Source: Candidatus Poribacteria bacterium
GTDB taxonomy: Bacteria; Poribacteria; WGA-4E; JAJDTR01
DNA: 64,000 bases
Assembly (NCBI GenBank): GCA_965204085.1
Contig: CBDBEE010000003.1
Coordinates: 387,240 to 451,239 of the forward strand
Direction: 5' to 3'
Shown: one piece after another, positions 17,149 through 48,500 of the stretch
Layout of the letters: the number at the start of each line of letters is the position of its first letter
Position numbering within the stretch: the stretch's first letter is position 1
Notes under the pieces: generated by a model
Told to the model about the DNA's origin: nothing
Databases searched by the model: none
What the model saw: only the letters and a program-made list of their open reading frames with translations
Translations under genes and position numbers: made by a program

Positions 17149-17282
17149 GTACATACACCTGCGACGAATGTAAGCAACTTTCGATAAAAAATCTCGCATT
17201 GTAACGAAAACCACGCCGCGCCAACCACTTAGCCACTCGTTCCAGATTGACAAATTCACCTAATCTTCCTCTGACTATTCGG

Positions 17283-17524: not shown

Positions 17525-17762
17525 CAGAGTGAAACCCAACACCAAGCTAATCTATTGTAGGGTGCGCACTGCGCACCAGCCTCTTCCAAGCGCCATCGTC
17601 CATCTTATTCTCAAAGGTCCGAAGTAGCACTGACGCGTATTGTTCAAACTGCGCCTGGAAGTCGATAATTAACGATTAACGTAACTTCATCCGGAATGCG
17701 TCTCATTCTATCGCTGTAACGCTAATGCGAAATATCCCAAAAAAGCACCGTACCGTCGTCGC
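17525..17762. repeat. second copy of the WD40 3' block; its palindrome reads GTGCGCACTGCGCAC (17555..17577), with compensatory G>C / C>G changes in the two arms
   Basis: Direct comparison with 15081..15320. Confidence 0.8.
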
Positions 17763-19602: not shown

Positions 19603-19776
19603 GTCTATACACCTGCGATAGTACAAAGATATTCTGAAATGCCCAAAATTGAGACTGTTTAATATCGTCAAAGATTCTTCTAGCTGCCGACACAACAATT
19701 ACGAAGACGCAAATCGCTCAGACGCGATGAATTATTCGGGGCGAACTCGCTTCCACGCGAATCCGTCAATCCCCGA

Positions 19777-29195: not shown

Positions 29196-30430
29196 GCCCC
29201 TATCATCAAGAACCCAAGTTCATGAAAACTTCGCGCAGCTTATCGAAGGTCGGGCGCGCGTTTCTTAAGCCTACCCCAAATTGTGGCTGTCTTGGAAGTA
29301 GGGGACACCGCTAGTGCTACCGGGTTAAAGTCGGGCTGGTAATCGATCCCATCATGATCATCGCTAAGTTGCTTAAGATATTTTCCATCTGCGGTCATCA
29401 AGTGAATCTTTGCGCCGAAGAGAAATTCATCAGAGCTCGCATATGCGATCGCCTCTCCATCGGGAGACCATGCGGGCCCCCGATGATTCTCTTGATTGTG
29501 TGTAAGCTTCTTGAGATTTTTTCCATCCACCCCCACCACATAGATGTGAAAGAATCCCGCCTCCTCGCCCCAGTATGCAATCCGTCCTCCGTCGGGAGAA
29601 AACGATGGGTGCCATTTAGGCACTAAATCGTGCGTTACCCGTTCAAGCCCCTGTCCGTCAGCGTCCATCACGTAAATTTCGTTGCCCCCATCTTTCCAAG
29701 ATACGAATGCAATCTGTCCCCCATCCGGAGACCATGATGGCTGCCTCGTTCGGTCTTCATACCTTACACGATTTCCTCCATCTGCGTCCATTACCTCGAT
29801 ATGATTTATCCCATCTTGGACGGTGAACGCAATCTTACCCCCATCTGGAGACCAGTCTGGATCCGCCTTTCTTTCCGGCCCATCTGTCAGTTTAATCAGG
29901 TTCGTACCATCGGCGTCCATGACGTAGATTTGATATTCGCCGGTTCGACGGGAAACGAATGCAATCTTCGTCCCGTCGGGAGACCAATCCGGATCCTCGT
30001 CATCCACTGGATTGTTTGACAAGTTTTCCCGGTTTCCGCCATCGGAATCCATTACATAGATTTCAAAGTTGTCAAATCCCTGGTGTGAAAAAACAATCCG
30101 TGGCCCCTGCGCGGCGAGTCCTCCTATAAACCACAACTCCGCACTTAACAGCATCACGGTTAACCCAATAAACGACACAAGTGTGCGCCTGAATCGCATT
30201 TTTTCCTCCTTGGCCGTGCCTAATATGAACAGTAAGGTAACCGGTTTTGAATGCGTGCTCAGGTACCGTTTGTACGCGCTCCTAATCCTTGCGCAATGTT
30301 CTCGGCACTGGCGATATTTTCAATGGCCCGTCCCAGTCTTCTAGCCCCATTGACATCATCACGGCTTCCCGGTGCGTTTGAGATCTCCCCAAGATATCGG
30401 CAACTTTCCGTTTGGGTTGACTGCCAATGC
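29196..30430. repeat. segmental duplication, copy 1 (about 1.23 kb; PD40 type-A gene, its upstream region, and the 3' end of the next type-B gene)
   Basis: It is about 98% identical to 32676..33910. The identity breaks down on both sides, as seen by direct comparison of the two stretches. Confidence 0.85.
29240..30199 (-). CDS. secreted TolB-like PD40 beta-propeller protein (type A, 319 aa)
   Basis: ATG at 30199 with an AGGAGG Shine-Dalgarno sequence and a signal peptide. Repeated PD40 blades follow the D-W-SPDG-x-IAF pattern. The C-terminal tail is …AVSPTSKTATIWGRLKKRAPDLR. Confidence 0.8.
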   Translation of the reverse strand: MRFRRTLVSFIGLTVMLLSAELWFIGGLAAQGPRIVFSHQGFDNFEIYVMDSDGGNRENLSNNPVDDEDPDWSPDGTKIAFVSRRTGEYQIYVMDADGTNLIKLTDGPERKADPDWSPDGGKIAFTVQDGINHIEVMDADGGNRVRYEDRTRQPSWSPDGGQIAFVSWKDGGNEIYVMDADGQGLERVTHDLVPKWHPSFSPDGGRIAYWGEEAGFFHIYVVGVDGKNLKKLTHNQENHRGPAWSPDGEAIAYASSDEFLFGAKIHLMTADGKYLKQLSDDHDGIDYQPDFNPVALAVSPTSKTATIWGRLKKRAPDLR

Positions 30431-31348
30431 ACCTTGCGGCCAAGAGGGATCTTTGTTATCAATACCGGGAGGAGTCTTCGTGAGTTTGACGGCGTTCCTC
30501 CCGTTGGTGTCCATCAAATAAATATTAGAATCTCCGCCGCGGTGCGACACATAGGCGATTTTCTTCCCATCCAGAACATAGACTGGTGACGTGCTGCGAC
30601 CGTCTTCCGTAAGCTGCTCTAACTCTTTCCCGTCAGTGGTAATCGCGAAAATGTCATCACGCGTGCGATCAGGGAAGCGGCGCCGCGAGTGGAAAACAAT
30701 CTTCTTGCCATCTGGCGACCAAGTAGGAAAGAAACTGTCCGTGAGGTCGCTGTCGCCGGTGAGATTACGCCTTCCCGTTCCATCTGCATTCATCACGAAG
30801 ATGTGAGCGGGATCAAAGTCGTCGAAAGGGGCGCCGACAAACGCAATCTTACTTCCATCTGGTGACCAACTCGGTACAACATCGTCCATCTTGTGTTCTG
30901 TCAAATTTATCTCATTTTCTCCATTGGCGTCCATCACGTAGATTTCCGAGTTGCGGACGTGAAAACGGGAAGATGAAAAGGCAATCCTCGTGCCATCCGG
31001 CGACCAAGTAGCGCGGCTGTCAAAAAAATTGTCATGGGTGAGTCTTACCACGTTATTGCCATCACTGTCCATCACATACAAGTCCTGTGTAACGCCGCGC
31101 TCTGATGTGAACGCAATCCTTCTCCCATCCGGCGAGCAAGCGGGATATTCATCGGATGCAGGGTGGTCGGTGAGTTGGAGGAGATTGTCTCCATTTACGT
31201 CCATGGAGTAAATGTCCCAGTCGCCGTCACGATTCGATGCAAAGACGATTCTCGGTTCGAACGTCTGCGCGGTGCTGTTAGAAGTAACTATTAACGCCAA
31301 TAGCAGTAGAAACAGGCATTTTCTCAAAAATGGGCTGATTTTAATCAC
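30359..31348 (-). CDS. secreted TolB-like PD40 beta-propeller protein (type B, 329 aa)
   Basis: GTG start at 31348 with a GGAGAA Shine-Dalgarno sequence and a signal peptide (CLFLLLLALIVTSNSTAQ). PD40 blades are present. The C-terminal tail is …AVNPNGKLPISWGDLKRTGKP. Confidence 0.75.
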   Translation of the reverse strand: MIKISPFLRKCLFLLLLALIVTSNSTAQTFEPRIVFASNRDGDWDIYSMDVNGDNLLQLTDHPASDEYPACSPDGRRIAFTSERGVTQDLYVMDSDGNNVVRLTHDNFFDSRATWSPDGTRIAFSSSRFHVRNSEIYVMDANGENEINLTEHKMDDVVPSWSPDGSKIAFVGAPFDDFDPAHIFVMNADGTGRRNLTGDSDLTDSFFPTWSPDGKKIVFHSRRRFPDRTRDDIFAITTDGKELEQLTEDGRSTSPVYVLDGKKIAYVSHRGGDSNIYLMDTNGRNAVKLTKTPPGIDNKDPSWPQGALAVNPNGKLPISWGDLKRTGKP

Positions 31349-31443
31349 CGGTCATATTCTCCTTTTTCGGGTTCTACGCTTTTAGACTATTCTCTAAATC
31401 CCGGCAATGCTGTGTTTGGGTGTCGCCACCGAGTTCATTGACA

Positions 31444-32457
31444 TTACCGCGGGTTGCCGGTGCGTTTGATATCTCCCCAAGATGTCGGCAACTTTCCGTT
31501 TGGGCTGACTGCAAACGCACCAGCAGCAAACAACCAGGAAGGAAGTATGTTATCAACACTGGGAGGAGTTCTCGTGAGTTTGACCGCGTTCCTTCCGTTG
31601 GTGCCCATCAAATAAATATTGTAATCTCCGTCTCTTGTTGACGCAAAGGCGATTTTTGTCCCATCCGGCGAATAGGCTGGAAACCTGTTGCTACCCTCCT
31701 CCGTAAGCCTTTCTAAGTTTTCCCCTTCAGCGGTAATCGCGTAAATGTGATAATGCAGGTCTGGATCAAAGAGGTGCTGCGAGTGGAAAGCGATCATGCG
31801 TCCATCTGGCGACCAAGCAGGGGACCGATTTTTCGTTAGGTCAGTATCGCCGGTGAGATTGCGCCTTTCCTTTCCATCCGCATTCATCACGAAAATATGC
31901 TCTGGACTAAACCAGTCGCCGTCACGGGCGGATACAAACGCAATCTTGCTTCCATCTGGCGACCAACTCGGCGAATTATCTTGCCATTTGTGTTTTGTCA
32001 AATTTATCGGGTTATTTCCATTCACGTCCATCGCGTAGATTTCCTGGTTGCCAACGACCGCACGGAAAGATGAAAAGGCAATCCTCTTGCCATCCGGCGT
32101 CCAACTAGGGTCGATTTCAACAAAATTGTCATGGGTGAGTCTTACCACGTTATTGCCATCGCTGTCCATCACATAAAGGTCATGTGTAACGCCGCGTTCT
32201 GATGTGAACACAATCCTTCTCCCATCCGGCGAGCAAGCGGGAGAGTAATCGTATGCCGGGTGGTCGGTGAGTTGGAGGAGATTGTTTCCGTTTTGGTCCA
32301 TGGAGTAGATGTCCCAGTTGCCAATCCAGTTGCCATCGTGGTTTGATTGAAAGACGATTCTCGGTTCGAAGCTCTGTGCTGTACTGTCCGAAGTAACCAT
32401 TAACGCCAATAGCAGTAGAAACAGGCATTTTCTCAAAAATGGGCTGATTTTATTCAT
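31444..32457 (-). CDS. secreted TolB-like PD40 beta-propeller protein (type B, 337 aa)
   Basis: ATG at 32457 with a signal peptide and PD40 blades. The tail is …AVSPNGKLPTSWGDIKRTGNPR. Confidence 0.8.
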   Translation of the reverse strand: MNKISPFLRKCLFLLLLALMVTSDSTAQSFEPRIVFQSNHDGNWIGNWDIYSMDQNGNNLLQLTDHPAYDYSPACSPDGRRIVFTSERGVTHDLYVMDSDGNNVVRLTHDNFVEIDPSWTPDGKRIAFSSFRAVVGNQEIYAMDVNGNNPINLTKHKWQDNSPSWSPDGSKIAFVSARDGDWFSPEHIFVMNADGKERRNLTGDTDLTKNRSPAWSPDGRMIAFHSQHLFDPDLHYHIYAITAEGENLERLTEEGSNRFPAYSPDGTKIAFASTRDGDYNIYLMGTNGRNAVKLTRTPPSVDNILPSWLFAAGAFAVSPNGKLPTSWGDIKRTGNPR

Positions 32458-32675
32458 CGGTCATGTCCTCCTTATTCCGGTATTTCAATTCTATAGTCAA
32501 TGCAACTGAAAAATTCACATTCGGGGAATTTAGCAGTTCAGTTTGCAGGAGCGATCTCCGAATCGCGAAGGAGCAACTCAATACTCGCTCCGATAGAGGT
32601 TGCGTTATGAATCGTGCTACTACGAGCCGAACCCAGTAAATCCTAAATGTGAAATCCTTGATTGATGCGATAATA

Positions 32676-33910
32676 GTCCCTATCATCAAGATTCACAGTT
32701 CAAAAGACAATCTCACAAGCTATCGAAGGTCGGGCGCGCGTTTCTTAAGCCTACCCCAAATTGCGGCTGTCTTGGAAATGGGTGACACAGCTAGGCCTAC
32801 CGGGCTAAAGTCGGGCTGGTAATCGATTCCATCATGATCATCGCTAAGTTGCTTAAGATATTTTCCGTCTGCGGTCATCAAGTGAATCTTTGCGCCGAAG
32901 AGAACTGCATCAGAACTCGCATATGCGATCGCCCCTCCATCGGGAGACCATGCGGGCCCCCGATGATTCTTTTCATTGGGCGTAAGCCTCTTGAGGTTTT
33001 TTCCATCCACACCCACCACATAGATGTGAAAGAATCCCGCCTCCTCGCCCCAGTATGCAATCCGTCCTCCGTCGGGAGAAAACGATGGGTGCCATTTAGG
33101 CACTAAATCGTGCGTTACCCGTTCAAGCCCCTGTCCGTCAGCGTCCATCACGTAAATTTCGTTGCCCCCATCTTTCCAAGATACGAATGCAATCTGTCCC
33201 CCATCCGGAGACCATGATGGCTGCCTCGTTCGGTCTTCATACCTTACACGATTTCCTCCATCTGCGTCCATTACCTCGATATGATTTATCCCATCTTGGA
33301 CGGTGAACGCAATCTTACCCCCATCTGGAGACCAGTCTGGATCCGCCTTTCTTTCCGGCCCATCTGTCAGTTTAATCAGGTTCGTACCATCGGCGTCCAT
33401 GACGTAGATTTGATATTCGCCGGTTCGACGGGAAACGAATGCAATCTTCGTCCCGTCGGGAGACCAATCCGGATCCTCGTCATCCACTGGATTGTTTGAC
33501 AAGTTTTCCCGGTTTCCGCCATCGGAATCCATTACATAGATTTCAAAGTTGTCAAATCCCTGGTGTGAAAAAACAATCCGTGGCCCCTGCGCGGCGAGTC
33601 CTCCTATAAACCACAACTCCGCACTTAACAGCATCACGGTTAACCCAATAAACGACACAAGTGTGCGCCTGAATCGCATTTTTTCCTCCTTGGCCGTGCC
33701 TAATATGAACAGTAAGGTAACCGGTTTTGAATGCGTGCTCAGGTACCGTTTGTACGCGCTCCTAATCCTTGCGCAATGTTCTCGGCACTGGCGATATTTT
33801 CAATGGCCCGTCCCAGTCTTCTAGCCCCATTGACATCATCACGGCTTCCCGGTGCGTTTGATATCTCCCCAAGATGTCGGCAACTTTCCGTTTGGGTTGA
33901 CTGCAAATGC
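32676..33910. repeat. segmental duplication, copy 2
   Basis: See copy 1. Confidence 0.85.
32720..33679 (-). CDS. secreted TolB-like PD40 beta-propeller protein (type A), a near-identical duplicate of 29240..30199
   Basis: It is about 98% identical to the copy at 29240..30199 at the nucleotide level, including flanks. The tail is …AVSPISKTAAIWGRLKKRAPDLR. Confidence 0.8.
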   Translation of the reverse strand: MRFRRTLVSFIGLTVMLLSAELWFIGGLAAQGPRIVFSHQGFDNFEIYVMDSDGGNRENLSNNPVDDEDPDWSPDGTKIAFVSRRTGEYQIYVMDADGTNLIKLTDGPERKADPDWSPDGGKIAFTVQDGINHIEVMDADGGNRVRYEDRTRQPSWSPDGGQIAFVSWKDGGNEIYVMDADGQGLERVTHDLVPKWHPSFSPDGGRIAYWGEEAGFFHIYVVGVDGKNLKRLTPNEKNHRGPAWSPDGGAIAYASSDAVLFGAKIHLMTADGKYLKQLSDDHDGIDYQPDFSPVGLAVSPISKTAAIWGRLKKRAPDLR

Positions 33911-34846
33911 ACCAAGAGTCAGCCAAGAAGGATATATGTTATGTACACCGCGCGGAGTGTTCGTGAGTTTGACAGCGTTCATCCCGTCGGTATCCATCAG
34001 ATAAATATTTGAATCACCGTTACGGTGTGACACATAGGCGATTTTTGCCCCATCCGGCGAATAGGCTGGCATCCTGTTGCTGCCCTCCTCCGTAAGCTTC
34101 TCTAACTCTTCTCCTTCAGCGGTAATCGCGTAAATTTGATAACGCGGGCCTGGAGCGAAGATGTGCTGCGACTGGAACGCAATCTTGCTTCCATCTGGCG
34201 ACCAAGTAGGGGACAGATTATTCGTTAGGTCGGTATCGCCAGTGAGATTGCGCCTTTCCTTTCCATCCGCATTCATCACGAAAATATGCTGGGGAGTATC
34301 CAAGCGGCCATCACGGGTGGATGCAAACGCAATCTTGCTTCCGTCCGGCGACCAACTCGGCGTTAAATCGTGCCACTTATGTTTTGTCAAATTTATCTCA
34401 TTTGCTCCATTGGCGTCCATCACGTAGATTTCCGAGTTGCGGACGTCAAAACGCACAGATTCAAAGGCAATCCTCGTGCCATCCGGCGACCAACTAGGTC
34501 TACCTTCAATAAAATTGTCACGGGTGAGTCTTACCACGTTGTTGCCATCGCTGTCCATCACATACAGGTCATGTGTGACGCCGCGCTCTGATGTGAACGC
34601 AATCCTTCTACCGTCCGGCGAGCAAGCGAGTAACCAATCAGATCCCGGATGGTCGGTGAGATGGGCCACATTGTCTCCGTTTACGTCCATGGAGTAGATG
34701 TCCCAGTTGCCAAGCCAGTTGCCATCGTGGTTTGATGCAAAGACGATTCTCGGTTCGAAGATCTGCGCTGTGCTGTCTGAAGCAACCATTAACGCTAGTA
34801 ACAATAGAAACAGGCATCTTCTAAAAAATGGGCTGATTTTATTCAT
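33839..34846 (-). CDS. secreted TolB-like PD40 beta-propeller protein (type B, 335 aa)
   Basis: ATG at 34846 with a signal peptide and PD40 blades. The tail is …AVNPNGKLPTSWGDIKRTGKP. The last ~30 codons fall within the duplicated block. Confidence 0.8.
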   Translation of the reverse strand: MNKISPFFRRCLFLLLLALMVASDSTAQIFEPRIVFASNHDGNWLGNWDIYSMDVNGDNVAHLTDHPGSDWLLACSPDGRRIAFTSERGVTHDLYVMDSDGNNVVRLTRDNFIEGRPSWSPDGTRIAFESVRFDVRNSEIYVMDANGANEINLTKHKWHDLTPSWSPDGSKIAFASTRDGRLDTPQHIFVMNADGKERRNLTGDTDLTNNLSPTWSPDGSKIAFQSQHIFAPGPRYQIYAITAEGEELEKLTEEGSNRMPAYSPDGAKIAYVSHRNGDSNIYLMDTDGMNAVKLTNTPRGVHNIYPSWLTLGAFAVNPNGKLPTSWGDIKRTGKP

Positions 34847-35091
34847 CTGTCATTCTCTCCTTATTCGGGTTCTTTTCTTCTAGAGAATTGTCTAACCTAA
34901 GTTGCCGACATTGTAGCACGATCAAGCGACTGATTAGGGAGCGCGATAGAAATCCCATAGCGAAGGCGATAGTAAATCCCACAGGTAGCAGCAGCTCAAA
35001 TATACAAAATTGCTATGTCACCTCTTTTTCAAACAGGCTCTTATGCACTTGTCTATGGCTTGTCGTCGAACTTCAACAAAGCGGGCGTAGA

Positions 35092-36075
35092 TTATCGGAG
35101 GTTGGACGCGCGTTTCTTCACCCTGCCCCAAATTGTAGTTGTTTTGGAGATGGGGGACACAGCTAATCCGAACGAGCGAATGTCGGGCTGAGAATCATTC
35201 GCACCATCGACATTGCTAAGTTGCTTAAGATATTGTCCATCGGCCGTCATCAAGTGAATCGATGAAGGACCATCATTGTCCCAGACATAATATGCGATCC
35301 TCCGTCCGGAGACAGACCATGCAGGGCCTCCATGATTCTGTTGATTCTGTGTAAGTCTCACCCGATTTTTCCCATCTGCCCCTACCACAAATATTTGAGG
35401 GTATAATCTGTCGATGGCCACGTATGCAATCCGTTTTCCGTCAGGAGAAAACGCCGGACTGTGTCCACCCCATAATTCCCGTAATTCATGCGTTACCCTT
35501 CTAAGCCCCTGTCCGTCAGCGCCTATCACGTAGATATCAGACCACCACTCCCCAGCTCTAAAGGATGAGAATGAAATCTCACGTCCATCAGGAGACCATG
35601 ACGGATCCCTCGCGTGGTTTTTAAACCTCACCCGATTATTTCCATCGGCATCCATCACGGCGATGTGAGATTCCCTTATTGCAGCCGGTTGGACCGTGAA
35701 GGCAATTTTACCCGCATCGGGAGACCAGTCTGGTGCCCACTTGCTCCGCGGTCCATCTGTCAATCTAATCGGGTTCTTTCCATCGGCGTCCATGACGTAG
35801 ATCTGATTTCCGCCGTTTCTGTCGGAAACGAATGCAATCTTCGTCCTGTCAGGAGACCAATCCGGATCGCTGTCATACGCTGGATGGTTTGTCAAGTTTT
35901 CTCGGTTTCCTCCATCAGCGTCCATTACATAGATATCAGTGTTGTCAGGTTTCGCGTAGAATGTAAAAACAATTCGATTTGTGCTGAAGGCGAACCCGCT
36001 TCTCAACCACAACTCCCCACTCAACAGCAACACCGTTAGCCCGATAAACGACACAAGCGTGCGTCCGAATCGCAT
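35092..36075 (-). CDS. secreted TolB-like PD40 beta-propeller protein (type A, about 327 aa)
   Basis: An ATG at 36075 (MRFGRTLVSFIGLTVLLLSG…) has an AGGAGG Shine-Dalgarno sequence 6 nt upstream. The track start at 36093 lacks one. The tail is …AVSPISKTTTIWGRVKKRASNLR. Confidence 0.8.
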   Translation of the reverse strand: MRFGRTLVSFIGLTVLLLSGELWLRSGFAFSTNRIVFTFYAKPDNTDIYVMDADGGNRENLTNHPAYDSDPDWSPDRTKIAFVSDRNGGNQIYVMDADGKNPIRLTDGPRSKWAPDWSPDAGKIAFTVQPAAIRESHIAVMDADGNNRVRFKNHARDPSWSPDGREISFSSFRAGEWWSDIYVIGADGQGLRRVTHELRELWGGHSPAFSPDGKRIAYVAIDRLYPQIFVVGADGKNRVRLTQNQQNHGGPAWSVSGRRIAYYVWDNDGPSSIHLMTADGQYLKQLSNVDGANDSQPDIRSFGLAVSPISKTTTIWGRVKKRASNLR

Positions 36076-36320
36076 TTTCTCCTCCTTAGTCATGGGTGTA
36101 ATGCGCAGCCCGTAGGTTGGGTTGAGCGGAGACCCTGAAAATATCCAAGAAGTCAGATTGCTTTAGAGCCTGTTTGAGAAGTACATTTGTAGGGGACGCA
36201 GATCTGCGTCCCCATACGGATCAAGTTAAGGGAGTTCGTCTAGTATTGGTGAGTTCTTCGCCGCAAAACCCTTAACTTAGTCCCCATTGGGCGAGGAGTA
36301 AATCTCAATCTCACCCCATA

Positions 36321-36791: not shown

Positions 36792-39700
36792 TCAATCCGC
36801 CGGCTGCGGCGCCAGTTCAGGGCTTGCGGTTTCCTCCGACTCGTCGTCCTCTTGACGTCCGCGCTCATGGAATTCGCCTCGAACATCCGGGCTAAGCGTC
36901 CGCCAGATCAGCAACTGCTTCCGAATCAAGTTCAAGAACCGACGATTCACACGCTTCCACGACGCTATTTCGCCGCTCTCGCGGGTAATATCAAGTTTAA
37001 TCTGGTACAGTTCCTCCTCCTCGCCGCCAACCGGCGACGTCACGAACCGAATGGCTTGGCTCACGCCCAAATCGTACGGCGCCAACCAAACCATCATACT
37101 GACGGCGTACGACTCCTGTTCCCTATCTCCTGATTCCTCCATAAACCTGGCGAAGGCAACTTGGTTCGTATAAAAATCACTCGCCGACTCGTCCGCGTGC
37201 GCATCAAAGTAATCGCGCATAAATATGTTCAGACCGAGAGCTTCCTCGGACAGCACCGTGAACGGTAGGTTGAAGTGCCATTCATCGCCTGTAGGTTCCG
37301 GCAACTTCCACTTTCGTTCCAAATCGGGAACCGCCATCCGGCTCGCTTTAATCGCCGGGTACAGTGTGCTGCCCACCACTACTATCATCACGATAATCGT
37401 CGCTACGACCGTGGACATGGACGAGTAATTTAGGGTCAGACCGGAAAGCCAACCGAAATTCACCAGCAGCGTCGCCACGACTTGACCCAACAGGTAACCG
37501 AGCACCGCGCCGACAATCGCATAAACACACGCCTCCGCGAGGAACAGAAACGCGATATGCACCGGCGCCAATCCGACAGAGCTGTAGATGCTAATCTCTC
37601 GAATCCTCTCGTAGACCGCGCCAAGCATGGTGTTTAACACAATCAGCGATGCGATGAGAATCGGAATGAACAGGTTCCCCATGCCGGAGAACGAGGTCAT
37701 CCCGATTGAGCTGTACAGATACGTGTTCTTGTCCCGAGCCACGAAAAAATCGAGCGCAATTCGGCTCATCAGCGGCGCCATGATGAGATCCAGTTTGTCG
37801 ACCGCACCCGGTACCGGCGGATCTTCGGGTTGAGGCTCCATATTGACAGCCACCGAGCGCAGCGTGCCGCCTTGGTTGATAATCACCTGATACGGCAGTA
37901 TGGCAACGCTGTCCGGCGTCAGGTGGATATATTTCTGCAATTCGCTGGTGCTGCTCTGGTTCCCTTGCGCTCCCCGCGAGCTTTGCTGTTTCATCAATTG
38001 GTGATCGATGGGCGTCAGCTCCTCGCCATCGTTGTCGGTCAAATCCTTGAAACCGATTCCGAGCACCCCGGTCACGGTAAAGTCCGCGCCGTAAACCGAA
38101 ACAGTGGCTTTGCCCATATCGGCTTCGACAATTCCCAGCAGATCTGCAACTCCTTTCGGCAGCACACATGCATAGGGCCATCGCGTGGGCCATTCCTCCT
38201 CATCCGCGGGATCGAACCACTTACCGTAATACAGATAGCGGTTTATGCCGGTGATTCGCGGCTCGGCGGCGCTCATCCCGACCAGCATGTTGGCGGAGAA
38301 GGTGTAGGGTTGACCGGTCAAGGCGTCCTCGGGGGGCACGGGATCCTTGACGTTGGAGGTGCGTCTCAATTCGATAAACGACTGATCTCCCGTGCCTGAT
38401 GATTGGTACCACGCTCGGGGACCTACCGCGTTGTGAACCGTCAACATCGAAGAGGGCTGGTAAACCTTCAATTCATCCCCGTCTTTCCTCACCGTGTATG
38501 TGCTCCTGTTGCCGGTGATTTCCCATCTTTCTTCGTCCGTGACCGGCTGAATAGATGTCTGAGGCGCAAGAAGGAATCCGCGTCTGTCAAATTCATGGTT
38601 TAAACTTGCGGAAATTTCGCCCTTCGCAAACTCATCCTGAAGTTCTGAATCCATGCTGAACAGGAATGTCGGTTCGGCGCTGACGCTGGCGAGCGTCCCC
38701 GCCTCGCTTAGCTGAGCAATGGTATCCTCAATCTCCTCCGAGGGCGTGCCTCGCCTTTTCAACATCATCCGAAAATCAGGTTCGGGAAGCTGTGTCTTCC
38801 TCAGATCATTCATAATCGAGCTGATGACCGGCGCTTCAAGCGGACGCCAATACTGATCTCGAATCAACATCCCGGTGTAGCGCGGTGTCACGGCGGGCAG
38901 GTTGGTCTTGTTGGGGTGCATGAAGGTGCGCACGGAGGTGAACGAGATAACGGTGAAGGTCAATATCACCAGCGTGGCGCATGTCAGAATGGTGCGGCCC
39001 TTCCGTTTTCGCATATTCGACACGCCGAGACTGAAAGCCGCGGCGGAAGCCGCCAGGCGGCCCACGTCCGCTTTATACACCTTCGAACTTTCCTGTCTGA
39101 TTTTCTCGAGTTGCTCCTCGAATTTTCGCAAGATGATGGCGATTACGAACACCGTTAGCACCAGCACCACGAAGGCGATAAGAATGATGACGGGCGTGGT
39201 CGTAATTTGGAACGCGGGATGCACCTGCGCCAAAAAGAAGAACACCAGGATGAAAATCCCAGCCGCGCCGCCAATCCGTTTGTGCACGTCGGGAGAGGCA
39301 AAGATCAGACGTTCCATAAAGTAGGAGAACGGCAGGAGTAAGGCGAGGTAGAACATGACCCCGTTGACGACATCGTTACCCGTTTTCTTGACATCGGGAT
39401 AGGCGCGCGATTCGTATCCCCACGCCGCTCGCGCCAGTTTCATTGCCGTGGAGTATTCTTTCTTGGCGAGCGCCGTTTCCGCTTGATCCAGGTGCTCGTG
39501 CGCATAGAAATGGAGTTGATCGAGCCGATCGCTGCTGATGCCGAACCGTTTGTATAAGCTCGTGCGGTTTTCGTCGAGCCACCACATATCTCGGACGACA
39601 ACGTAGGGCGTGACGCGGATGGAACCGTTCTCGCGGACGACAAACCCCGATCCGGTGTATAGTGCCGGATTCTTCGCGCCGCTCTTGCCCGCTTTGATAA

Positions 39701-42700
39701 GCAGCAACCGCTTGCCGATCTGCCCGTATGCCATGCCAATCTTTATACGTGTATCCGGTTCGGAATAGACAAGCGCGATCGGCTCGGTGGCGGACACGCC
39801 CTGCTGCTGCCACGGTTTGGACATCCCGTATTTTTCCGGCGGGCTATCGCTTAAACCGTCAAACACTTGCAACTCGCGCAGCGTGCGCAGGTACCGCTGA
39901 TCGACGAGGTCGTAAATGGTAGTGGACACACACGGGAAAACGATGACGCGGCAGCCTCGTCGCCGGTTTTGGATCCGAAGTTTATTGGATGTGAGTTTGG
40001 CGCCGAAGTTGCCCAAATCCGGGGCATACACGATGTCGCCGGAGTCGGAGTCAAGGAGGTAGGCATCAACCTCTTGCAACCCGCCAATGCGGTGAGTTGC
40101 TCGTCCCTCCATCGCCAGACCCGGCACATCAAACTGAGCTTTGTTGTTGCCCATGGCGATGAGGTCGCCGCGAACACCCATCATGGTCTTGTGCTTGCGT
40201 CGTATAGCGACGATAGGATAGGGCACCGGCGTGTTAGGTAGCGCGCTCTCCCGGGCGTCGTATTCGACGACATCGCCGAACAAATTGCAGTAGAAGTTAC
40301 TCACCTTGGCGCCGGTGGGCATTTTCGGATCGAGCATGGCTTGGATGAGGATGCCGGTCAGCGATTTTACCTGCCTGTGAAGATTGCCGTCATACGTGAG
40401 ATCCATTCTGTCAATCGTGTCCAACGGTGTGTCAGTCAGCAGCCGCCCGTCTTCGATCGTGGCGAACGTAACGCCGGTCTTACCTATCAACGTGGCAACC
40501 TCGCTGTCAAAAGCAATCTTTCCCGGGATGTAGGTTCGCCACGTTTTGGCGCCGGTGGCACCGATAGCGTTGACGAAGTTCGTTTCGCCTCCCAGCCCGA
40601 CGATGTCGATTAACGTTTGGATATCTTCAATCTCGTCCGGGCTTAGTTGAGAAGGATCCTCATGACGCAGGGCAAGCATCATCGGCAGCCGATTGAGGAG
40701 TCGAATCGTGTTCTTGCGGGTTCGCTGCGCCTCGCGTAGGTCGTCTTGGATAAACCGTTCCACTTCGTTGCGGATGTATTCCATGTCTTTCAGCATCTCT
40801 TCCGAGGGCTCGCCGCGCGTCTGCATCTGCTCAAACTGCATCTTCATCAGGCGGGAGACATCGGTCAGCGCAACCAACGATTCGTAGTGGTCGGAAATCA
40901 GGGTCTCCAGAGACTTTCCTTCAATTTCTTTCTTCGTCTCTATCTCGAAAGCGGCTTCCCATTGGCTGTTCATGACCGCCTGACGAATTTGGTCATCGGT
41001 AAAACTCCAGAGCTTGCCGATGCGCACGCCGAAGTCGACGTCGTTGGCGTACTGCATGAGCTTGTTGCCAATGGGGGCAAACTCTCGCCGCAGCACAAAC
41101 TCGGGTTGCTGGTCGTAGAACCAGCCCTTGTTGAACACGGCGAATTTGTCGCTCTGCGTGGAGAGGTCAACCGAGATAAATAGGGAGGTGTAGTAGCGGT
41201 TGAAAAGGTCTTGAAGGGAGATGGCTTGCTCAACGGCGGCGATATTACGGTCATATTCCGATTTGCTGAATCGGGCGAGAATTGCAACGCGGGATTGGAT
41301 GTTGCGAATACGCGAGTTTCGGAGAGTAAGCATGTTGTCGCGGAGAAGGATTTTTATGTCGTCCGGAAAGTCGCGGTCAAAGTTGTCCAGTCCGTTCCTC
41401 AAGTTCTGAAGCTCGACAATATCCTCGCGCGCTTTCTGTTTGACAAACCGGAGCAGCCTGCGTTCTTCAAGGTGGGCAGCTATCTGTTCGCGCGCTTCGA
41501 TTGCGGCTTCCGCTTCGTCATTCTCAAGGTAGTGACGCAACACGAGTATCTCTTCTTCAAAGTACGGACGATTCAGCGAAGCGTGCCAATCATCCTCCAG
41601 CAGGGATTCCAGCCGCTTGCGCTCAAGCCGCGCGTTCCGCATGGCAATCTCAAAGATTCCCTGCTTGTCCTTCGTCAACTCCTCAATAAGGACGGCATGG
41701 GATTCCTTTATCACCCCGCCGCCGGCTGTTTCGTGAACATTCGCCACCTTCTGGCGCAGTTGCGTCTGGATCCCCTTCAACCGACTCATTATGGCTCTAC
41801 TCAGAAAAGGTGCGAATATCCCGTCGACATCATCAGGCATGTAGTCGCGTTGGGTGCGCAACCGGCTTATGCTCGTCTTGATGGGTGACTCAAAATCCGC
41901 ATCCGAAGAAATTCTTTGAAGCGCGTTCTCAAGCTGAAGTTTTTCTTGAGCAATATAGTCGTCCAAACTCCTGTTCGCCTGCCTGGCGCGATCCACAACC
42001 TTGCGCGCGTCCTTCATCGCCTTCAGACCGTGGAAATCCAAGTGTCGATCTAGCACGCGCTCTTGGGCGTATTGGAGCGCAAATTTACGAGAATCGGAAA
42101 ACTCCCAATCCGCCAAATAGTCGGACAGTAGTTTCAAATCCGAGGCTACAGATGTTCCAATGAGATTAGACGGAATTGGGAGATGATAGGCGTCATCTTC
42201 ACCTTTTTCCGGAATGAGGTATGAATCACCCGGCTGCCGTCCGTAGCTTCCACCGACGCGCCCGGCATTCAAATCGGCTTCCAACTGTTCCAACACCCAC
42301 GCGTCCAACCGTGCCATGGGTAGCGCAACGTTTTCAATTAGTTCCAATTGCGCTTCTCGGCACGCCGTCAACGCCATGATCTGGAGGTCATGCATGCGGT
42401 CAACGACCATGCGCAAGAATTGGGTTGTCTGCAGCGCATCTTTCTTGAATTTTGCGAGATTGGTCTCAAGCGTGGATTTTTCCTCCAGCGTATAGCCCTG
42501 CTTCTCGCGTTTTTTCACGACGCGGCGGCGTCTTTTCTGCTTCTCTTTGAAATCTCGTTGTTTGTTGCGCAGCGAGTTGATTCGGTTGTACGTTTTCCCG
42601 ACATCGGATACAGTGGATTTCAGTGACAGAATGGCATCGTCAAGCTGGTGGATTTCGTAGAAGAATTCGGGAGGCAGATCGACGAGCACACTACGGTCAA

Positions 42701-44468
42701 TCGAGAGCAGCAGTTTACGACTCAATTCCTTGAACGGACGGAGATCCAGTCCCAGCCCTTTTGCCATCCCTCCCATGGTTGGAATCCCGGGCGCTTCGCC
42801 CGAGTTGATGTTGAAGTCCGCCCTCGCGATTATATCTTGTCCAATTCCGAACATAAAGAATCGCATACCGGCAAGCCCCTGGAAGTGCCCGTCCGTCGCG
42901 ACAAAAAGCATGGAGCGTCCGGGACGGTATTCCTCTTTGCTGAGGATTCGCGCCACCTCCAAAAGCGCCGCGATTCCGCTTGTAGGATCGGCGCCGGGGG
43001 CAAGTGACGGGACGACCGACATGGAGTCGTAGTAGGCGGTAACGACAACCATCTCGTCTTTCAGAATCGGGTCGCTGCCTTCAAGGAATCCGCGGATGTT
43101 TTGGCCAATTCGGCGTTCCCACGTCATGGTAGAATTCAACCGAACCATTAACGGCTCTGATTTGGAATTCCGATCTGCGTTTCCTGCCTCGGATTCGCCT
43201 AGAAGATTAAGTAACAGATCCGCATCCGTCCTTGAAATCCAGAATCGAGGGATGTTCGCAGGCACCGTCAAGAATTTGTTTTCGGCTTCACCGCGAATAG
43301 TGGTTTCGGGTTCAATAAACACCACAGCTTTCGCGCCAAGCATGGCAGCATTTATCCATTGCGTGCTGGAATTGAAATCTACCAGCAGAACGCTTCCGCG
43401 CGGAATGAAGAGACTGGACTCCGATGCGGCAATAAACTCACCGTCCTCATCAATTAGACCGTCGTTGTTGTTGTCAACGCCATCGTAGGCATTGCCGGGC
43501 GTTTCGTCAACATACCCGTCAGCATCGTTATCAATACCGTCACTGTCCCAATAGACGATGTCGGCAAGCAACGGGATTTCGCCGTATTCGTCAATTTCGC
43601 CGTCTTCGTTGTTGTCAATGCCGTCTTCGGTTTTCTGTAGGTGGCTATTGAGCACATCGTCGGTGATACTCCCCACGGTAACACGATGCCTGTGAGCGAT
43701 GTCTTCAAGCGTATCGCCCCTCTGAACGGCGTACCAGAATCCGCCGATATCTTTGCCGTTGAAGTCCTCCAGATTGGCGTCACCCCCGTAAAAGAGTGGG
43801 GCGCGAAGACCACCGGTGGGAACGAATACCGTGCTGCTCGTCGTTAACGCCACCTCGCCGGGTTCGTCGATTTCGCCATCCCTGTCGTTATCCTGTCCAT
43901 CAGCGGCTTGATTTTGCAGATATTGATTATGGGAATCCTCAAGAATGGATCGAGGCTCTACCTGATATGACTTGGCAATGGATTCGACGGTTTCGCCATC
44001 TTGCACGAGGTGCTTGATCCCGGTGGGCAGCAGTGAGGTACGAATGAGGTTGGGCCACACGGGCCATATCTTTATGGTTCTGAGCACCTCATCGTTTGAG
44101 GAAAGCACCTCCAGTCTTCCGTCGCCGTGGTCAACGGGAACGGCGATCCGAAATTCGCGGCTCTCGACGTTCTGTAAGCCGGTCTCGACGAACCGATCGA
44201 AGACGTACTTACTTGCGGCAGTCGCTTCGGGATAGCCTGTGACCCGACTCTCCAGACTGGAGAGCCGCGCGATATCCTTTCGCATTCTACCGACATCAAC
44301 CTCATCCCGAATCTTGACCGCGATTTCAGAGAGACCGACGGTTGTATCCCTTTCCGCAGTCAGAGGCGTGGATGTCATGATCAGTGCGATGAGACAAACC
44401 CATAGAATATGGAGACTCCTATTCTTGATTGCAATTCGACATTTATCTTTGTTTTTGAGATTGTTCAT
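36792..44468 (-). CDS. giant (2558 aa) membrane protein: N-terminal signal anchor, LysM-like repeats with Asp-rich Ca-binding-like repeats, an M28-peptidase-like domain, about 1000 aa of coiled coil, and FtsX/MacB-type permease modules at the C-terminus
   Basis: One uninterrupted ORF starting at ATG 44468. The tandem segments VQDGETVESIAKSY…/VQRGDTLEDIAHRH… are each followed by D-x-D-x-DG-x-ID-E repeats. VVVTAYYDSMSVVPSLAPGADPTSGIAALLEVARIL resembles the M28 signature HxDS…APGAxDxxSG. The C-terminal block (RKRKGRTILTCATLVILTFTVISF, a ~500-aa periplasmic insert, then GAVYERIREISIYSSVGLAPVHIAFLFLAEACVYAIVGAVLGYLLG) is a clear FtsX-like permease domain. No Walker A motif occurs anywhere in the protein. 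Confidence 0.8.
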   Translation of the reverse strand: MNNLKNKDKCRIAIKNRSLHILWVCLIALIMTSTPLTAERDTTVGLSEIAVKIRDEVDVGRMRKDIARLSSLESRVTGYPEATAASKYVFDRFVETGLQNVESREFRIAVPVDHGDGRLEVLSSNDEVLRTIKIWPVWPNLIRTSLLPTGIKHLVQDGETVESIAKSYQVEPRSILEDSHNQYLQNQAADGQDNDRDGEIDEPGEVALTTSSTVFVPTGGLRAPLFYGGDANLEDFNGKDIGGFWYAVQRGDTLEDIAHRHRVTVGSITDDVLNSHLQKTEDGIDNNEDGEIDEYGEIPLLADIVYWDSDGIDNDADGYVDETPGNAYDGVDNNNDGLIDEDGEFIAASESSLFIPRGSVLLVDFNSSTQWINAAMLGAKAVVFIEPETTIRGEAENKFLTVPANIPRFWISRTDADLLLNLLGESEAGNADRNSKSEPLMVRLNSTMTWERRIGQNIRGFLEGSDPILKDEMVVVTAYYDSMSVVPSLAPGADPTSGIAALLEVARILSKEEYRPGRSMLFVATDGHFQGLAGMRFFMFGIGQDIIARADFNINSGEAPGIPTMGGMAKGLGLDLRPFKELSRKLLLSIDRSVLVDLPPEFFYEIHQLDDAILSLKSTVSDVGKTYNRINSLRNKQRDFKEKQKRRRRVVKKREKQGYTLEEKSTLETNLAKFKKDALQTTQFLRMVVDRMHDLQIMALTACREAQLELIENVALPMARLDAWVLEQLEADLNAGRVGGSYGRQPGDSYLIPEKGEDDAYHLPIPSNLIGTSVASDLKLLSDYLADWEFSDSRKFALQYAQERVLDRHLDFHGLKAMKDARKVVDRARQANRSLDDYIAQEKLQLENALQRISSDADFESPIKTSISRLRTQRDYMPDDVDGIFAPFLSRAIMSRLKGIQTQLRQKVANVHETAGGGVIKESHAVLIEELTKDKQGIFEIAMRNARLERKRLESLLEDDWHASLNRPYFEEEILVLRHYLENDEAEAAIEAREQIAAHLEERRLLRFVKQKAREDIVELQNLRNGLDNFDRDFPDDIKILLRDNMLTLRNSRIRNIQSRVAILARFSKSEYDRNIAAVEQAISLQDLFNRYYTSLFISVDLSTQSDKFAVFNKGWFYDQQPEFVLRREFAPIGNKLMQYANDVDFGVRIGKLWSFTDDQIRQAVMNSQWEAAFEIETKKEIEGKSLETLISDHYESLVALTDVSRLMKMQFEQMQTRGEPSEEMLKDMEYIRNEVERFIQDDLREAQRTRKNTIRLLNRLPMMLALRHEDPSQLSPDEIEDIQTLIDIVGLGGETNFVNAIGATGAKTWRTYIPGKIAFDSEVATLIGKTGVTFATIEDGRLLTDTPLDTIDRMDLTYDGNLHRQVKSLTGILIQAMLDPKMPTGAKVSNFYCNLFGDVVEYDARESALPNTPVPYPIVAIRRKHKTMMGVRGDLIAMGNNKAQFDVPGLAMEGRATHRIGGLQEVDAYLLDSDSGDIVYAPDLGNFGAKLTSNKLRIQNRRRGCRVIVFPCVSTTIYDLVDQRYLRTLRELQVFDGLSDSPPEKYGMSKPWQQQGVSATEPIALVYSEPDTRIKIGMAYGQIGKRLLLIKAGKSGAKNPALYTGSGFVVRENGSIRVTPYVVVRDMWWLDENRTSLYKRFGISSDRLDQLHFYAHEHLDQAETALAKKEYSTAMKLARAAWGYESRAYPDVKKTGNDVVNGVMFYLALLLPFSYFMERLIFASPDVHKRIGGAAGIFILVFFFLAQVHPAFQITTTPVIILIAFVVLVLTVFVIAIILRKFEEQLEKIRQESSKVYKADVGRLAASAAAFSLGVSNMRKRKGRTILTCATLVILTFTVISFTSVRTFMHPNKTNLPAVTPRYTGMLIRDQYWRPLEAPVISSIMNDLRKTQLPEPDFRMMLKRRGTPSEEIEDTIAQLSEAGTLASVSAEPTFLFSMDSELQDEFAKGEISASLNHEFDRRGFLLAPQTSIQPVTDEERWEITGNRSTYTVRKDGDELKVYQPSSMLTVHNAVGPRAWYQSSGTGDQSFIELRRTSNVKDPVPPEDALTGQPYTFSANMLVGMSAAEPRITGINRYLYYGKWFDPADEEEWPTRWPYACVLPKGVADLLGIVEADMGKATVSVYGADFTVTGVLGIGFKDLTDNDGEELTPIDHQLMKQQSSRGAQGNQSSTSELQKYIHLTPDSVAILPYQVIINQGGTLRSVAVNMEPQPEDPPVPGAVDKLDLIMAPLMSRIALDFFVARDKNTYLYSSIGMTSFSGMGNLFIPILIASLIVLNTMLGAVYERIREISIYSSVGLAPVHIAFLFLAEACVYAIVGAVLGYLLGQVVATLLVNFGWLSGLTLNYSSMSTVVATIIVMIVVVGSTLYPAIKASRMAVPDLERKWKLPEPTGDEWHFNLPFTVLSEEALGLNIFMRDYFDAHADESASDFYTNQVAFARFMEESGDREQESYAVSMMVWLAPYDLGVSQAIRFVTSPVGGEEEELYQIKLDITRESGEIASWKRVNRRFLNLIRKQLLIWRTLSPDVRGEFHERGRQEDDESEETASPELAPQPAD

Positions 44469-45543: not shown

Positions 45544-48500
45544 CTATTTGACAACTACCATCCGGCGCATTTGCGAATAATCTCCCGCGCGGAATTGATA
45601 GAAATAAACACCGCTTGCTGCTGATTCTCCGTTCTCGTTACAACCGTCCCAATATGCGGCGCGTGCCCTATTCGTGTAAAATCCCGCCGGTTGGCGCCTC
45701 AAATCTAGCAGCCGAACCAATGCTCCTTTTGCGTCGTAAATCGAAATTTGGACATCGGAATCGCTAGCGAGGTGATACGGTATCCAAGTCTCCGGATTAA
45801 ACGGATTCGGGTAGTTGGGGTACAGCGCCGTCTCTTGTGGAATCAGCGAGGCTAACAGATTTTGAAGATTTGCAATGCCCTGCCGATAAGCAATCGAACC
45901 GTCGTCTTCAAGCCGCGCCTTGGCAATCCAGGCTTCTATTGTTGCAGCATCCACGTTTTCCGTCGCAATCGCAGGTGCGGCGGACTCGGTGGTATCTCCA
46001 ATTCTTTGTGCCGTGAAGGTGAGATCGAGGATGTTAACCACGCCGTCGCGGTTGACATCCGCCGGCGAGTTGGGAGACACGCTTTGCCCCAACTGCTGAG
46101 CAACGAGAATCAGATCGAGAATGCTGACAACCCCATCGCGGTTCACATCTCCGGTCGCCAATCGTCCCTTCACAGTGAAGCGGATTTCATGCGGTCCTGC
46201 AGCGATATTTTCCCCGATGCTAGATCCGAACTGGAAATTATCAAGCGCCAATACCGTTTCACCGCTGGTTTTCGCTTTGAGCTTCACCTGAAGCAGCGAG
46301 CCGGTGCCAGTGACTCCCCGGTTGCCCAGTAGTGCAGCACCGAGACCCGCGATCTTACCCGCAGCATTGTCAATGCTCCCAGTCCGAAAGAAGGTCGCTC
46401 CGCCATCCGACTCCAAGAAATCGCCTTCACTCACGTCAATCGCTTCGAATATGGCAGGGTCGAAGACAATGTCGAGCTGCCACCCCGCCAGATCGGAGAC
46501 ATTCTCCGCCCGGATATTGAAAGTAAAGGTATCGCCGTTGTGAATTGGCATCTTAGAAAAGGCATAGCTAACGCCAGTTACCACCGTATATTCGGTGCTC
46601 GGTTCAAACCCAAACAAGGCACCGGTTTCAGATCCGGGCGAGAAAACGGCGACTAATAACACATTCCTGCCTTGCTGCAGCGTGACCGGGAAAAAATCGT
46701 TGTACTCAAGTTCCATCGCTCTGTCACCCAACGCCTCGTAGACCAGTTCCCCGTTGAGCCAAACCTTTAGTCCTTCATCGTTGCCGACATACATGGTTGT
46801 TTTCTGTTCGCGCGGCGAATAGAGGGAGACAAACCCGTAAGTAACACCATGTTCACGTACAGCGCCCTTTAACATATTTCCGATATTGTGTCGATCCGTA
46901 GACGGGAGTTGGTCGAATCTCCACACGTTATCCCCGATAGGTTTTCCCACTGTCGCGCCATTGGTAGCAATTTTCTTCTCCGTCTCCTTGCCTTCAGTGG
47001 CTTCCGAGAGTAAATCAATGTCACGCTCCAGTCTTACGTCCGGCAACACGACCCATAACCAGGGACCCTCTATTTTCGTACCCCCTTTCGGGAACCCCGG
47101 ATTGATGTGCCAAACGAGTTTTGTATTCTTGAGAAGGCCGCCCAAAGGCGAAAAGTCGGAGATTTCGTTCTGGTTTACCGCCAGCCATTTCAGGTTGGTT
47201 AAGCCTGCAAGCGGCGATATATCGGATATGTCGTTGTGTTCAAGACTCAGACGATTTAGCCCGGTCAACCCCGCAAGAGGTGATATGTCCGAGATCCCGT
47301 TCCCTCTAAGATACAACTCTTTTAGGCTGGTCAGACTCGCCAAAGGCGAAAGGTCTGATAGCTTTGCGCCGCAAATGTCTAACCTATCCAGTTTTGGTAA
47401 CCCCGTTAGAGGTGATAAATCGGAGAAAGGGTTGCCCCACGTGTGGATGAATGTCAGGTTGCTTAGTCCTGCAAGCCCCGATATGTCGGATATGGTATCA
47501 TTGGAAAAAGCTAAGAACTCCAAACTAATTAGTCCGGCAACCGGCGATAGGTCGGATACGTTAGTATCGGCAATAACTAATTCTTTCAAATTGGTTAACC
47601 CTTCAAGGGTCGACAGGTCGGATATGTTGGTACCGGCAATATCCAAACGCCTCAGATTGATTGATCCCGCAAGCGGCGACAGGTCGGATAAATCGCCGTG
47701 AACCTCCACAAAATCCAGGTTCGTTAAGCCTGTCAAGGGTGATAAATCGGATACCCGGCTGTTATCAAGTTCTAAACGGGTAAGGCTTGTTGCAAATTGC
47801 AATCCTGTCAAATCGTAGACACGTCTATCATGCGAAAGTAGCCGTCTCACCCTCGCCAGTTCCTCCACGGTAATTGGGGCATTGGAGCTTTTGCCAAGTT
47901 CCTCCGCAATCATTGTGCGCAGAATCGGATCCGGGACATGGACATGTCTACCCGGTACTACATCGGGCTGTGTTTCAACAGAAGGCTCTTCTACGAGCTG
48001 CGGGTAATCCAGCGCAGAAATTACGTCTCGGAAACTTGATGTCCAAGTGTCGCGTTTCACACTCCCGTTCTCATTATCTAACGCCAGCAATCCTACGTTC
48101 TGAAGTCCCGTATTTTCACGAATCTTTTTGAGGAAGGTTTCGGTTTCTAACCCAACCACCGCAGCTGCGTATGCTGCGTCCACCGGTCCCTGAAACGCCT
48201 CATGGAAACGTGAAACCGGTTCAACTCCGCCAAACACACCGCCGGTGGCTGCAAGCGCTTTTCTATAGCGTTCCATGTCATCGCCCACAAGAGCGTCCAT
48301 CTCGGATTTCTCAACGTAGAGTCGCAGCGCCTGCGCTTTGTTGTAGGGTGGATTGGGATTGCTCTCAATCACGGAACGCACCTCGTCTTCAAAGGTTTTC
48401 ATGCCTTCCGTGTGGCAGCCGATACAGGAGATTCCGTTGCGCACCGTCGGGTCGCTGGCAGCAGGGTTGGAAACGATGTTAATCGGGGCATCATTCAATC

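Follow-up and report, generated by a model that had tools for sequence, protein, structure and literature searches.

A short C-terminal tail shared by predicted exported proteins of unrelated folds in Poribacteria

Results

Seven proteins of one contig share a C-terminal ending

We analyzed a 64,000-bp stretch of DNA (the window) from a Candidatus Poribacteria bacterium (assembly GCA_965204085.1, contig CBDBEE010000003.1, positions 387,240 to 451,239) and found that seven minus-strand open reading frames (ORFs), six tandem genes for PD40 proteins (TolB-type propellers) and one gene for a LamG-type lectin, encode a common C-terminal tail. In the window the tail has the form [LF]AVxPxxKxxxxWGx[LIV]K. 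One tail peptide is LAVEPAGKLATTWGEIKRR. A preliminary description, made from the sequence alone, had quoted these seven endings, and translation verified both the ORFs and their C-termini. The regular expression given there fits the tails except at one position of the protein at 30359-31348, which has I where [ST] was required. A six-frame scan of the window with the motif returned exactly seven matches; every one is on the minus strand, with 2-7 residues separating it from a stop codon. The back-translated pattern A-V-x-P-x-x-K-x4-W-G-x-h-K matched seven times against 0.00 expected from 100 dinucleotide-preserving shuffles. Signal-peptide-like N-termini were present on all seven proteins (7/7). 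A sequence look-up found no database record of the exact window LamG protein.

The seven tails represent three independent lineages rather than seven, namely PD40 type A, PD40 type B and LamG. Type A proteins end in ...ISKTAxIWGRLKKRAPDLR and type B proteins in ...PNGKLPTSWGDIKRTGKP. Recent duplication or gene conversion has been shaping the array: its two 319-aa type A copies show no differences along most of their length, and a downstream flank of 80 bp is identical in two of the type B copies. In a related genome (L120:2086-20960) at least 14 tandem PD40 genes, with the A and B types interleaved, all carry the tail.

Table 1. Tail-bearing genes of the window, followed by the other features mentioned in the text (positions are those of the window)
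Feature	Position	Strand	Basis
PD40 propeller protein type A, 319 aa, signal peptide, tail ...LAVSPTSKTATIWGRLKKRAPDLR	29240..30199	-	ORF translation; Pfam PD40 1.2e-38; AlphaFold2 (AF2) model; TolB match
Tail core of this type A protein, 17 residues, LAVSPTSKTATIWGRLK	29264..29314	-	Regular expression and DNA pattern
PD40 propeller protein type B, 329 aa, tail ...LAVNPNGKLPISWGDLKRTGKP; tail core 30377-30427	30359..31348	-	ORF, Pfam, regular expression
PD40 propeller protein type B, 337 aa, tail ...FAVSPNGKLPTSWGDIKRTGNPR; tail core 31465-31515	31444..32457	-	ORF, Pfam, regular expression
PD40 propeller protein type A, 319 aa, tail ...LAVSPISKTAAIWGRLKKRAPDLR; tail core 32744-32794	32720..33679	-	ORF, regular expression
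PD40 propeller protein type B, 335 aa, tail ...FAVNPNGKLPTSWGDIKRTGKP; tail core 33857-33907	33839..34846	-	ORF, regular expression
PD40 propeller protein, diverged type A, 333 aa, tail ...LAVSPISKTTTIWGRVKKRASNLR; tail core 35116-35166	35092..36093	-	ORF, Pfam, regular expression
LamG/ConA-like lectin protein, 290 aa, signal peptide, tail ...FAVDPSGKVSTTWGKLKRGF	51098..51970	-	ORF, Pfam Laminin_G_3, AF2 model, PDB matches
Tail core of LamG protein, FAVDPSGKVSTTWGKLK	51110..51160	-	Regular expression and DNA pattern
DUF6785/DUF6784 polytopic membrane protein, directly downstream of the PD40 array	26652..28595	-	Pfam 1.7e-139
2558-aa protein, immediately upstream of the PD40 array: M28 peptidase-like, LysM, C-terminal FtsX-like permease	36792..44468	-	
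Large secreted leucine-rich repeat (LRR) protein with cohesin, dockerin and FlgD_ig/type IX secretion system (T9SS)-like C-terminal domain (CTD)	45544..49722		
Small protein adjoining the LamG gene, weak Terminase_5 (gpP-like) match; counterpart at L121:19326-19985	49868..50500		
Large secreted LRR protein with GHL15 and C-terminal dockerin	53910..55937		
Duplicated gene pair: a CarboxypepD_reg plus C-type lectin protein (413 aa in one copy, 466 aa in the other) with a ~658-aa WD40 double-propeller protein after it	13277..21177	-	

The tail lies outside the folded bodies

AF2 models were obtained for the LamG protein (44 homologues) and a type A PD40 protein (47 sequences). In the LamG model, body residues ~30-270 had predicted local distance difference test (pLDDT) values mostly above 90, and the tail (residues 273-290) fell below 50; the Pfam Laminin_G_3 match to this protein stops at residue 264 of 290, 26 residues short of the C-terminus. 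In the PD40 model, the propeller spanned residues 34-291 at a pLDDT of ~90 or more, with its last strand at 285-291, and the tail (296-319) had a pLDDT of ~33. N-terminal helices were predicted in the models, in line with signal peptides. The PD40 body superposed on the TolB beta-propeller with a template modelling (TM) score of 0.76 and a root-mean-square deviation of ~2.1 Å, and the LamG body matched ConA-like lectin jelly-rolls in the PDB, so that as modelled the two bodies are unrelated folds.

The preliminary description had held that the LamG protein differs in fold from the PD40 proteins, and the models agree with this (a jelly-roll against a TolB-type propeller). They also rule out, for LamG and PD40 alike, that the tail is the last beta-strand of the fold. 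This was one of the two outcomes named in the preliminary description as fatal to its idea, the other being confinement of the motif to PD40 paralogues; both were examined and neither was observed. The sequence behaves as a short linear motif does: it is disordered and outside folded domains, with pLDDT below 50 in the tails against above 90 in the bodies, and it is both portable and strongly conserved for a disordered sequence.

The tail is conserved at the peptide level

The tail-coding DNA of the three window lineages was only ~50% identical, and the same codon was used at just 0-4 of the 6-9 identical residues. Since the codons mostly differ at this low DNA identity, the resemblance is kept at the level of the peptide and is not that of a repeated DNA element. 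Among LamG orthologues the frequency of the major residue was 0.81 in the 17-residue tail core compared with 0.69 in the body, and among PD40 homologues it was 0.82 compared with 0.77. Despite its predicted disorder, the tail core is no less conserved than the folded body. LamG orthologues down to 48% overall identity still carry the tail, and 101 of 120 type A PD40 homologues have a near-strict version of the pattern, the remainder being mild variants.

The consensus derived from matches to a tail profile (described below) was [LF]-A-V-[ESDN]-P-x-[GD]-K-L-x-T-T-W-G-x-[ILVM]-K, in which V, P, K, W, G and K are essentially invariant. The final lysine of the motif was K in 137 cases and R in one, though the extraction pattern permitted both. 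In a set of 297 tails, the motif stood 1-5 residues from the C-terminus in 87%; it was followed by 1-12 mostly polar or basic residues with no hydrophobic stretch. The full tail measures 17-25 residues, and its net charge was usually +1 to +4 (mode +2 to +3). The commonest last residue was R (101/297), followed by Q, Y, K or F, with F or Y in 54 of the 297 (~18%).

The tail is carried by many body families

HMMER was used to compare a profile of the tail alone (24 positions), at a cutoff of E<=0.001, with 1.84 billion representative sequences from clustering at 50% identity. The search returned 143 clusters (50% identity), almost all with the match at the extreme C-terminus. When the bodies of the 53 matches of at least 150 aa were classified, 24 had Laminin_G_3, 12 PD40, five the 3-keto-disaccharide hydrolase/DUF1080 domain (3keto-disac_hyd), four Kelch and one PKD; CBM9-like, NPCBM/NEW2 and weak discoidin matches, as well as several bodies with no Pfam match, were added from genome loci. 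At least eight Pfam body types bear the tail. Tail-bearing ORFs in 906 kb of Poribacteria DNA grouped into ~20 clusters of unrelated bodies (median length 259 aa), and for 157 of 165 matches to a relaxed motif in this DNA a stop codon was 1-8 residues away. The claim that the tail is portable and not confined to PD40 paralogues was thereby confirmed. A profile search for further unrelated secreted carriers, which the preliminary description had proposed, was also successful: signal-peptide-like N-termini were present in 42 of the 53 long representatives. Source annotations of the tail proteins were generic ('LamG domain-containing protein [Candidatus Poribacteria bacterium]', 'PKD repeat protein' or 'hypothetical protein'). 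The overall picture is one of small exported proteins, mostly non-catalytic binding modules.

Two departures from the terminal position were noted. In P0219 (273 aa), a matrixin-like (HEFGH) secreted protein, the motif SPNGKLPTTWGRIK follows right after the signal peptide, at the mature N-terminus; this was the sole clear occurrence away from the C-terminus. At L035:3608-6165, the motif of three tandem paralogues is separated from the stop by ~30 residues, which hold a conserved extension (...YPNGH+GTRFE+G...); this may be a variant with an internal tag. Few as they are, these cases suggest a binding epitope rather than a strictly terminal export signal.

For taxonomic range, the back-translated pattern A-V-x-P-x-x-K-L-x-T-x-W-G-x-h-K (~41 bits, fewer than one chance match expected) was scanned against 185,579 species, each represented by a single genome. 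At least 119 loci were recovered, and the matches listed all came from Candidatus or uncultured Poribacteria or from a few metagenome-assembled genomes labelled 'uncultured bacterium'. Among these matches, the tail appears to be restricted to the phylum Poribacteria, a sponge-associated phylum of dominant, uncultivated sponge symbionts.

The tail differs from known C-terminal signals

Neither whole proteins nor isolated tail peptides gave an NCBIfam (June 2026) or Pfam match on the tail, even at E<=10 for the peptides, which upholds the earlier statement that the motif matches no known sorting signal. Weak whole-protein matches to T9SS CTD models (E 0.03-0.07) fell inside the propeller and not on the tail. 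The motif strings were not found in the literature searched, where the only work on sorting or T9SS in Poribacteria was that of Kamke et al. 2014 (PMC3909097), in which this tail is not mentioned. That study reported TIGR04183-like T9SS CTDs in Poribacteria single-cell genomes with no Por structural genes, and ASPIC/VCBS domains in multiple copies (PMC3909097).

The window itself holds a protein with a T9SS-like CTD (45544-49722), which had been called genuine. Its Pfam FlgD_ig match passes the threshold (33.8 bits, cutoff 27) and its Por_Secre_tail match does not (22.2 bits, cutoff 27). When the tail was aligned to this CTD with hhalign the probability was 0.1%, in agreement with the proposal that the two are distinct. 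Like the T9SS CTDs (Por_Secre_tail TIGR04183/PF18962; FlgD_ig-type), which serve as sorting signals, the tail is a C-terminal appendage with a basic end and a phylum bias on Sec-exported proteins of many folds; unlike them, it is disordered, measures 17-25 residues instead of forming a folded beta-sandwich of 70-100, and has no sequence or profile similarity to them. A derived or truncated T9SS CTD is not supported by the hhalign result, by the isolated tails or by their length.

The tail was also compared with the sortase-type signals (LPXTG, PEP-CTERM, GlyGly-CTERM, MYXO-CTERM and PGF-CTERM), which are likewise short lineage-specific C-terminal tags on unrelated secreted proteins and were likewise discovered by spotting a recurring tail. 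Those signals consist of a signature motif, a hydrophobic transmembrane helix of ~20 residues and a basic cluster, whereas the tail has no hydrophobic segment. We rejected membership in the PEP-CTERM/LPXTG/GlyGly-CTERM class (sortase, exosortase and rhombosortase substrates) on this ground and for want of a match to any NCBIfam sorting-domain model. The likeness to dockerin-cohesin pairs is that of a C-terminal module by which interchangeable units, carbohydrate-binding or enzymatic, are fixed to a shared scaffold, but dockerin (PF00404) is a duplicated Ca-binding loop-helix fold of ~60-70 residues and the tail is a linear peptide. Dockerin identity was rejected, as no tail had a Pfam dockerin match and the length is incompatible. 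An outer-membrane protein (OMP) beta-signal, which is a beta-barrel membrane protein's terminal aromatic residue (F/Y/W), was rejected as well, given the low share of terminal F or Y and the soluble lectin or propeller folds of the bodies.

Short disordered terminal peptides are read by repeat-domain receptors in PTS1/PEX5, OMP beta-signal/BamD and the TolB-box. The tail has no sequence similarity to these peptides and the parallel is one of function only; TPR and FG-GAP genes are recurrent neighbours of tail genes, as described below. The tail is a new, phylum-wide C-terminal tag, unmodelled in Pfam and NCBIfam, that would belong with the known sorting and docking signals.

CRTAC1-like genes adjoin tail genes

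In the loci that had been selected for their tails, the commonest non-tail neighbours were genes for CRTAC1-like proteins (FG-GAP/VCBS plus UnbV_ASPIC; 20 genes in eight paralogue subgroups), TPR proteins, DUF6785/6784 membrane proteins and PhyH enzymes. Members of at least five CRTAC1-like subgroups were immediate neighbours of tail genes in the same orientation, 39-311 bp away, and these tail genes belonged to different body families. As a reverse test, CRTAC1-like genes were found by a profile search and eight of their neighbourhoods (four locus types, 123 kb) were picked regardless of tails. Immediately adjacent and co-oriented with the CRTAC1-like gene were 1-3 tail genes in 8/8 loci, 12 of them intact and one a decayed remnant, with no tail ORF elsewhere in the 123 kb. 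Three of the eight loci had an extra gene between or beside the CRTAC1-like and tail genes. Two of these encode TPR proteins, and one of the two starts with a signal of lipoprotein type (...LIIGC). For the third (L128, 412 aa) no Pfam match is on record, and its N-terminus resembles that of the TPR protein at L126. Adjacency of CRTAC1-like and tail genes, often together with a TPR gene, was observed at loci L124-L130, L051, L057, L072, L093 and others, in at least seven paralogous cassette types. The association is real, and it falls short of proof that the tail is read by the CRTAC1-like propeller or by the TPR protein.

Paralogues of the DUF6785/6784 protein (29-58% identity) occurred near tail genes in nine of the at least 119 tail-selected loci (including L074, L096, L100, L107 and L117), and in three of the nine, as in the window, the gene was directly adjacent to and co-oriented with a tail gene. 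In this sample of tail-selected loci only, the DUF6785/6784 protein is context and a possible associate of the tail system. The PhyH neighbours were judged to be background, since this family is known to be expanded in Poribacteria.

Other genes of the window

The 2558-aa protein encoded next to the PD40 array also has repeated D-x-D-N-D-type acidic motifs and a long charged coiled-coil-like region, and no homologue of it was found in the other tail loci examined. No conserved partner was found beside the LamG orthologue; only one flank was syntenic, and it holds metabolic genes. The side of the LamG gene with the small Terminase_5-like protein is variable in related genomes, with TIR genes, Type ISP restriction genes and transposases. 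The two large secreted LRR proteins carry modules of the cellulosome type. As a dockerin, a T9SS-like CTD and the tail are all present in the window, the organism uses three different C-terminal modules. The duplicated lectin and WD40 gene pair is typical of the 'eukaryote-like' gene content of Poribacteria.

Discussion

The motif described here is portable, C-terminal, located outside the folds, under constraint and genomically linked to CRTAC1-like genes. A sorting or partner-recognition role, as put forward in the preliminary description, is consistent with all of the findings. We infer such a role, together with retention of the tail on the mature protein and the identity of a reader, from sequence comparison, structure models and gene order. 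That the tail is a Poribacteria-specific C-terminal docking or sorting peptide, a short linear motif read by a common partner, is a proposal for which we judge the chances to be evenly balanced.

According to this proposal, a flexible linker would join the tail to small Sec-exported proteins, for the most part non-catalytic modules that bind glycans or proteins (LamG, DUF1080, CBM9, NPCBM, PD40, Kelch and PKD). The tail, followed by 1-5 mostly basic residues, would be unstructured on its own, and a common partner would recognize it, probably by strand addition or groove binding. In this way one site in the cell envelope would receive many interchangeable binding modules, either tethered there or routed to it. 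A dockerin or a sorting signal offers a parallel, but the tail is much smaller than these and lacks a membrane anchor. The best genomic candidates for the partner would be the CRTAC1-like FG-GAP/VCBS plus UnbV-ASPIC propellers and the TPR proteins, at least one of which is a predicted lipoprotein; both kinds are encoded next to tail genes.

Several observations weigh against the proposal. An export or cleavage signal would account just as well for the basic end and for the tight spacing between motif and C-terminus. The window tail genes adjoin no CRTAC1-like gene: the PD40 array sits between the 2558-aa M28/LysM/FtsX protein and the DUF6785 protein, and the LamG gene is solitary, without a conserved neighbouring partner. 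The adjacency seen elsewhere could reflect co-regulation of secreted proteins that function together and not a pair of tail and receptor. Poribacteria encode the ASPIC/VCBS and TPR families in multiple copies, and there is orthology among several of the loci used in the reverse test. The taxonomic restriction, in turn, rests on the at least 119 loci listed from one strict pattern.

A more specific form of the docking proposal is that the TTWG tail belongs to a system with a dedicated receptor, possibly formed by CRTAC1-like propellers and TPR proteins, that builds a cellulosome-like set of lectins and propellers on the envelope for the capture of host or matrix glycans. We put this forward tentatively and regard it as clearly less probable than docking or sorting in general. 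Our search of the ASPIC/UnbV literature found no functional information for bacteria, and if the idea is true it would give bacterial CRTAC1/ASPIC proteins their first function.

Among the alternatives, the one that best survives is that the tail is an outer-membrane export signal, a minimal analogue of the T9SS CTD that would be read in the periplasm by a Poribacteria-specific translocon and then cleaved or swapped for an anchor. The Sec signal peptides, the position of the motif 1-5 residues from the C-terminus in 87% of the tails and the basic end are all compatible with this. The occurrence of T9SS-type CTDs without Por/T9SS structural genes in Poribacteria (PMC3909097) makes other export routes plausible, and a body domain related to that of one tail family is also found inside a large protein that ends in a T9SS-like CTD. 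However, the tail has no detectable similarity to T9SS CTDs and at 17-25 residues is too short for the beta-sandwich that the T9SS recognizes; no candidate translocon or protease was identified; and one occurrence is N-terminal, while the three L035 proteins continue for ~30 residues past the motif. We consider export by this route unlikely, though worth keeping in view.

It is less likely again that the tail is itself an envelope anchor, either as a cationic tryptophan-containing peptide bound non-covalently to lipopolysaccharide or another anionic polymer, or through covalent cross-linking of one of its invariant lysines to peptidoglycan or protein (as in Lpp or in isopeptide bonds). Most tails do carry a positive net charge (mode +2 to +3), and the invariant tryptophan and the two lysines, which are almost never arginine, hint at chemistry beyond charge. 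Against this, strict conservation extends to the uncharged A-V-x-P, L, T-T and G, a sign of a specific protein reader rather than of generic electrostatics; the conserved lysine, unlike that of Lpp, is not the terminal residue; and no transpeptidase or catcher domain was linked to the tail genes.

Close behind in our estimate, and improbable, is that the tail acts among the tail proteins themselves in oligomerization or autoregulation, for example by insertion into the central channel of a neighbouring propeller in the manner of the TolB-box in TolB, with hetero-oligomers formed from the A/B arrays. The PD40 bodies are of the TolB type, whose homologues bind short tryptophan-containing peptides (PDB 2ivz, 3iax), and the A and B types are interleaved in arrays of six here and of at least 14 in L120 with every copy tailed. 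Yet the same tail occurs on LamG, CBM9, NPCBM, DUF1080, Kelch and PKD proteins, often from single genes without a propeller nearby, and a self-interaction specific to one fold fails to explain one consensus over ~20 body families. A tail without function, or one that is no protein feature at all (a repeated DNA or mobile element, an in-frame terminator or chance similarity among paralogues), deserves next to no credence, for although paralogues make up six of the seven copies in the window and part of the flanking DNA is duplicated, this reading is refuted by the ~50% DNA identity between lineages with different synonymous codons, the chance expectation of 0.00 in shuffled sequences, the orthologues that keep the tail at 48% identity and the 143 independent clusters.

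New sorting machines have repeatedly been discovered through lineage-specific C-terminal tags, LPXTG, PEP-CTERM and the T9SS CTD among them, and such tags make the surface proteome predictable from sequence. If the tail is a docking or sorting peptide, its reader is likely to be of a new type, given that the tail has no membrane anchor and is far shorter than folded sorting domains. The pairing with CRTAC1-like/ASPIC genes offers a concrete candidate and a first functional handle on a widespread bacterial family. A hidden Markov model of the tail would group hundreds of 'hypothetical' Poribacteria proteins as one functional class. The tag marks a large and diverse set of secreted lectin-like and propeller proteins in Poribacteria, and it bears on how the 'eukaryote-like' and glycan-binding proteins of these bacteria reach the host interface and stay there.

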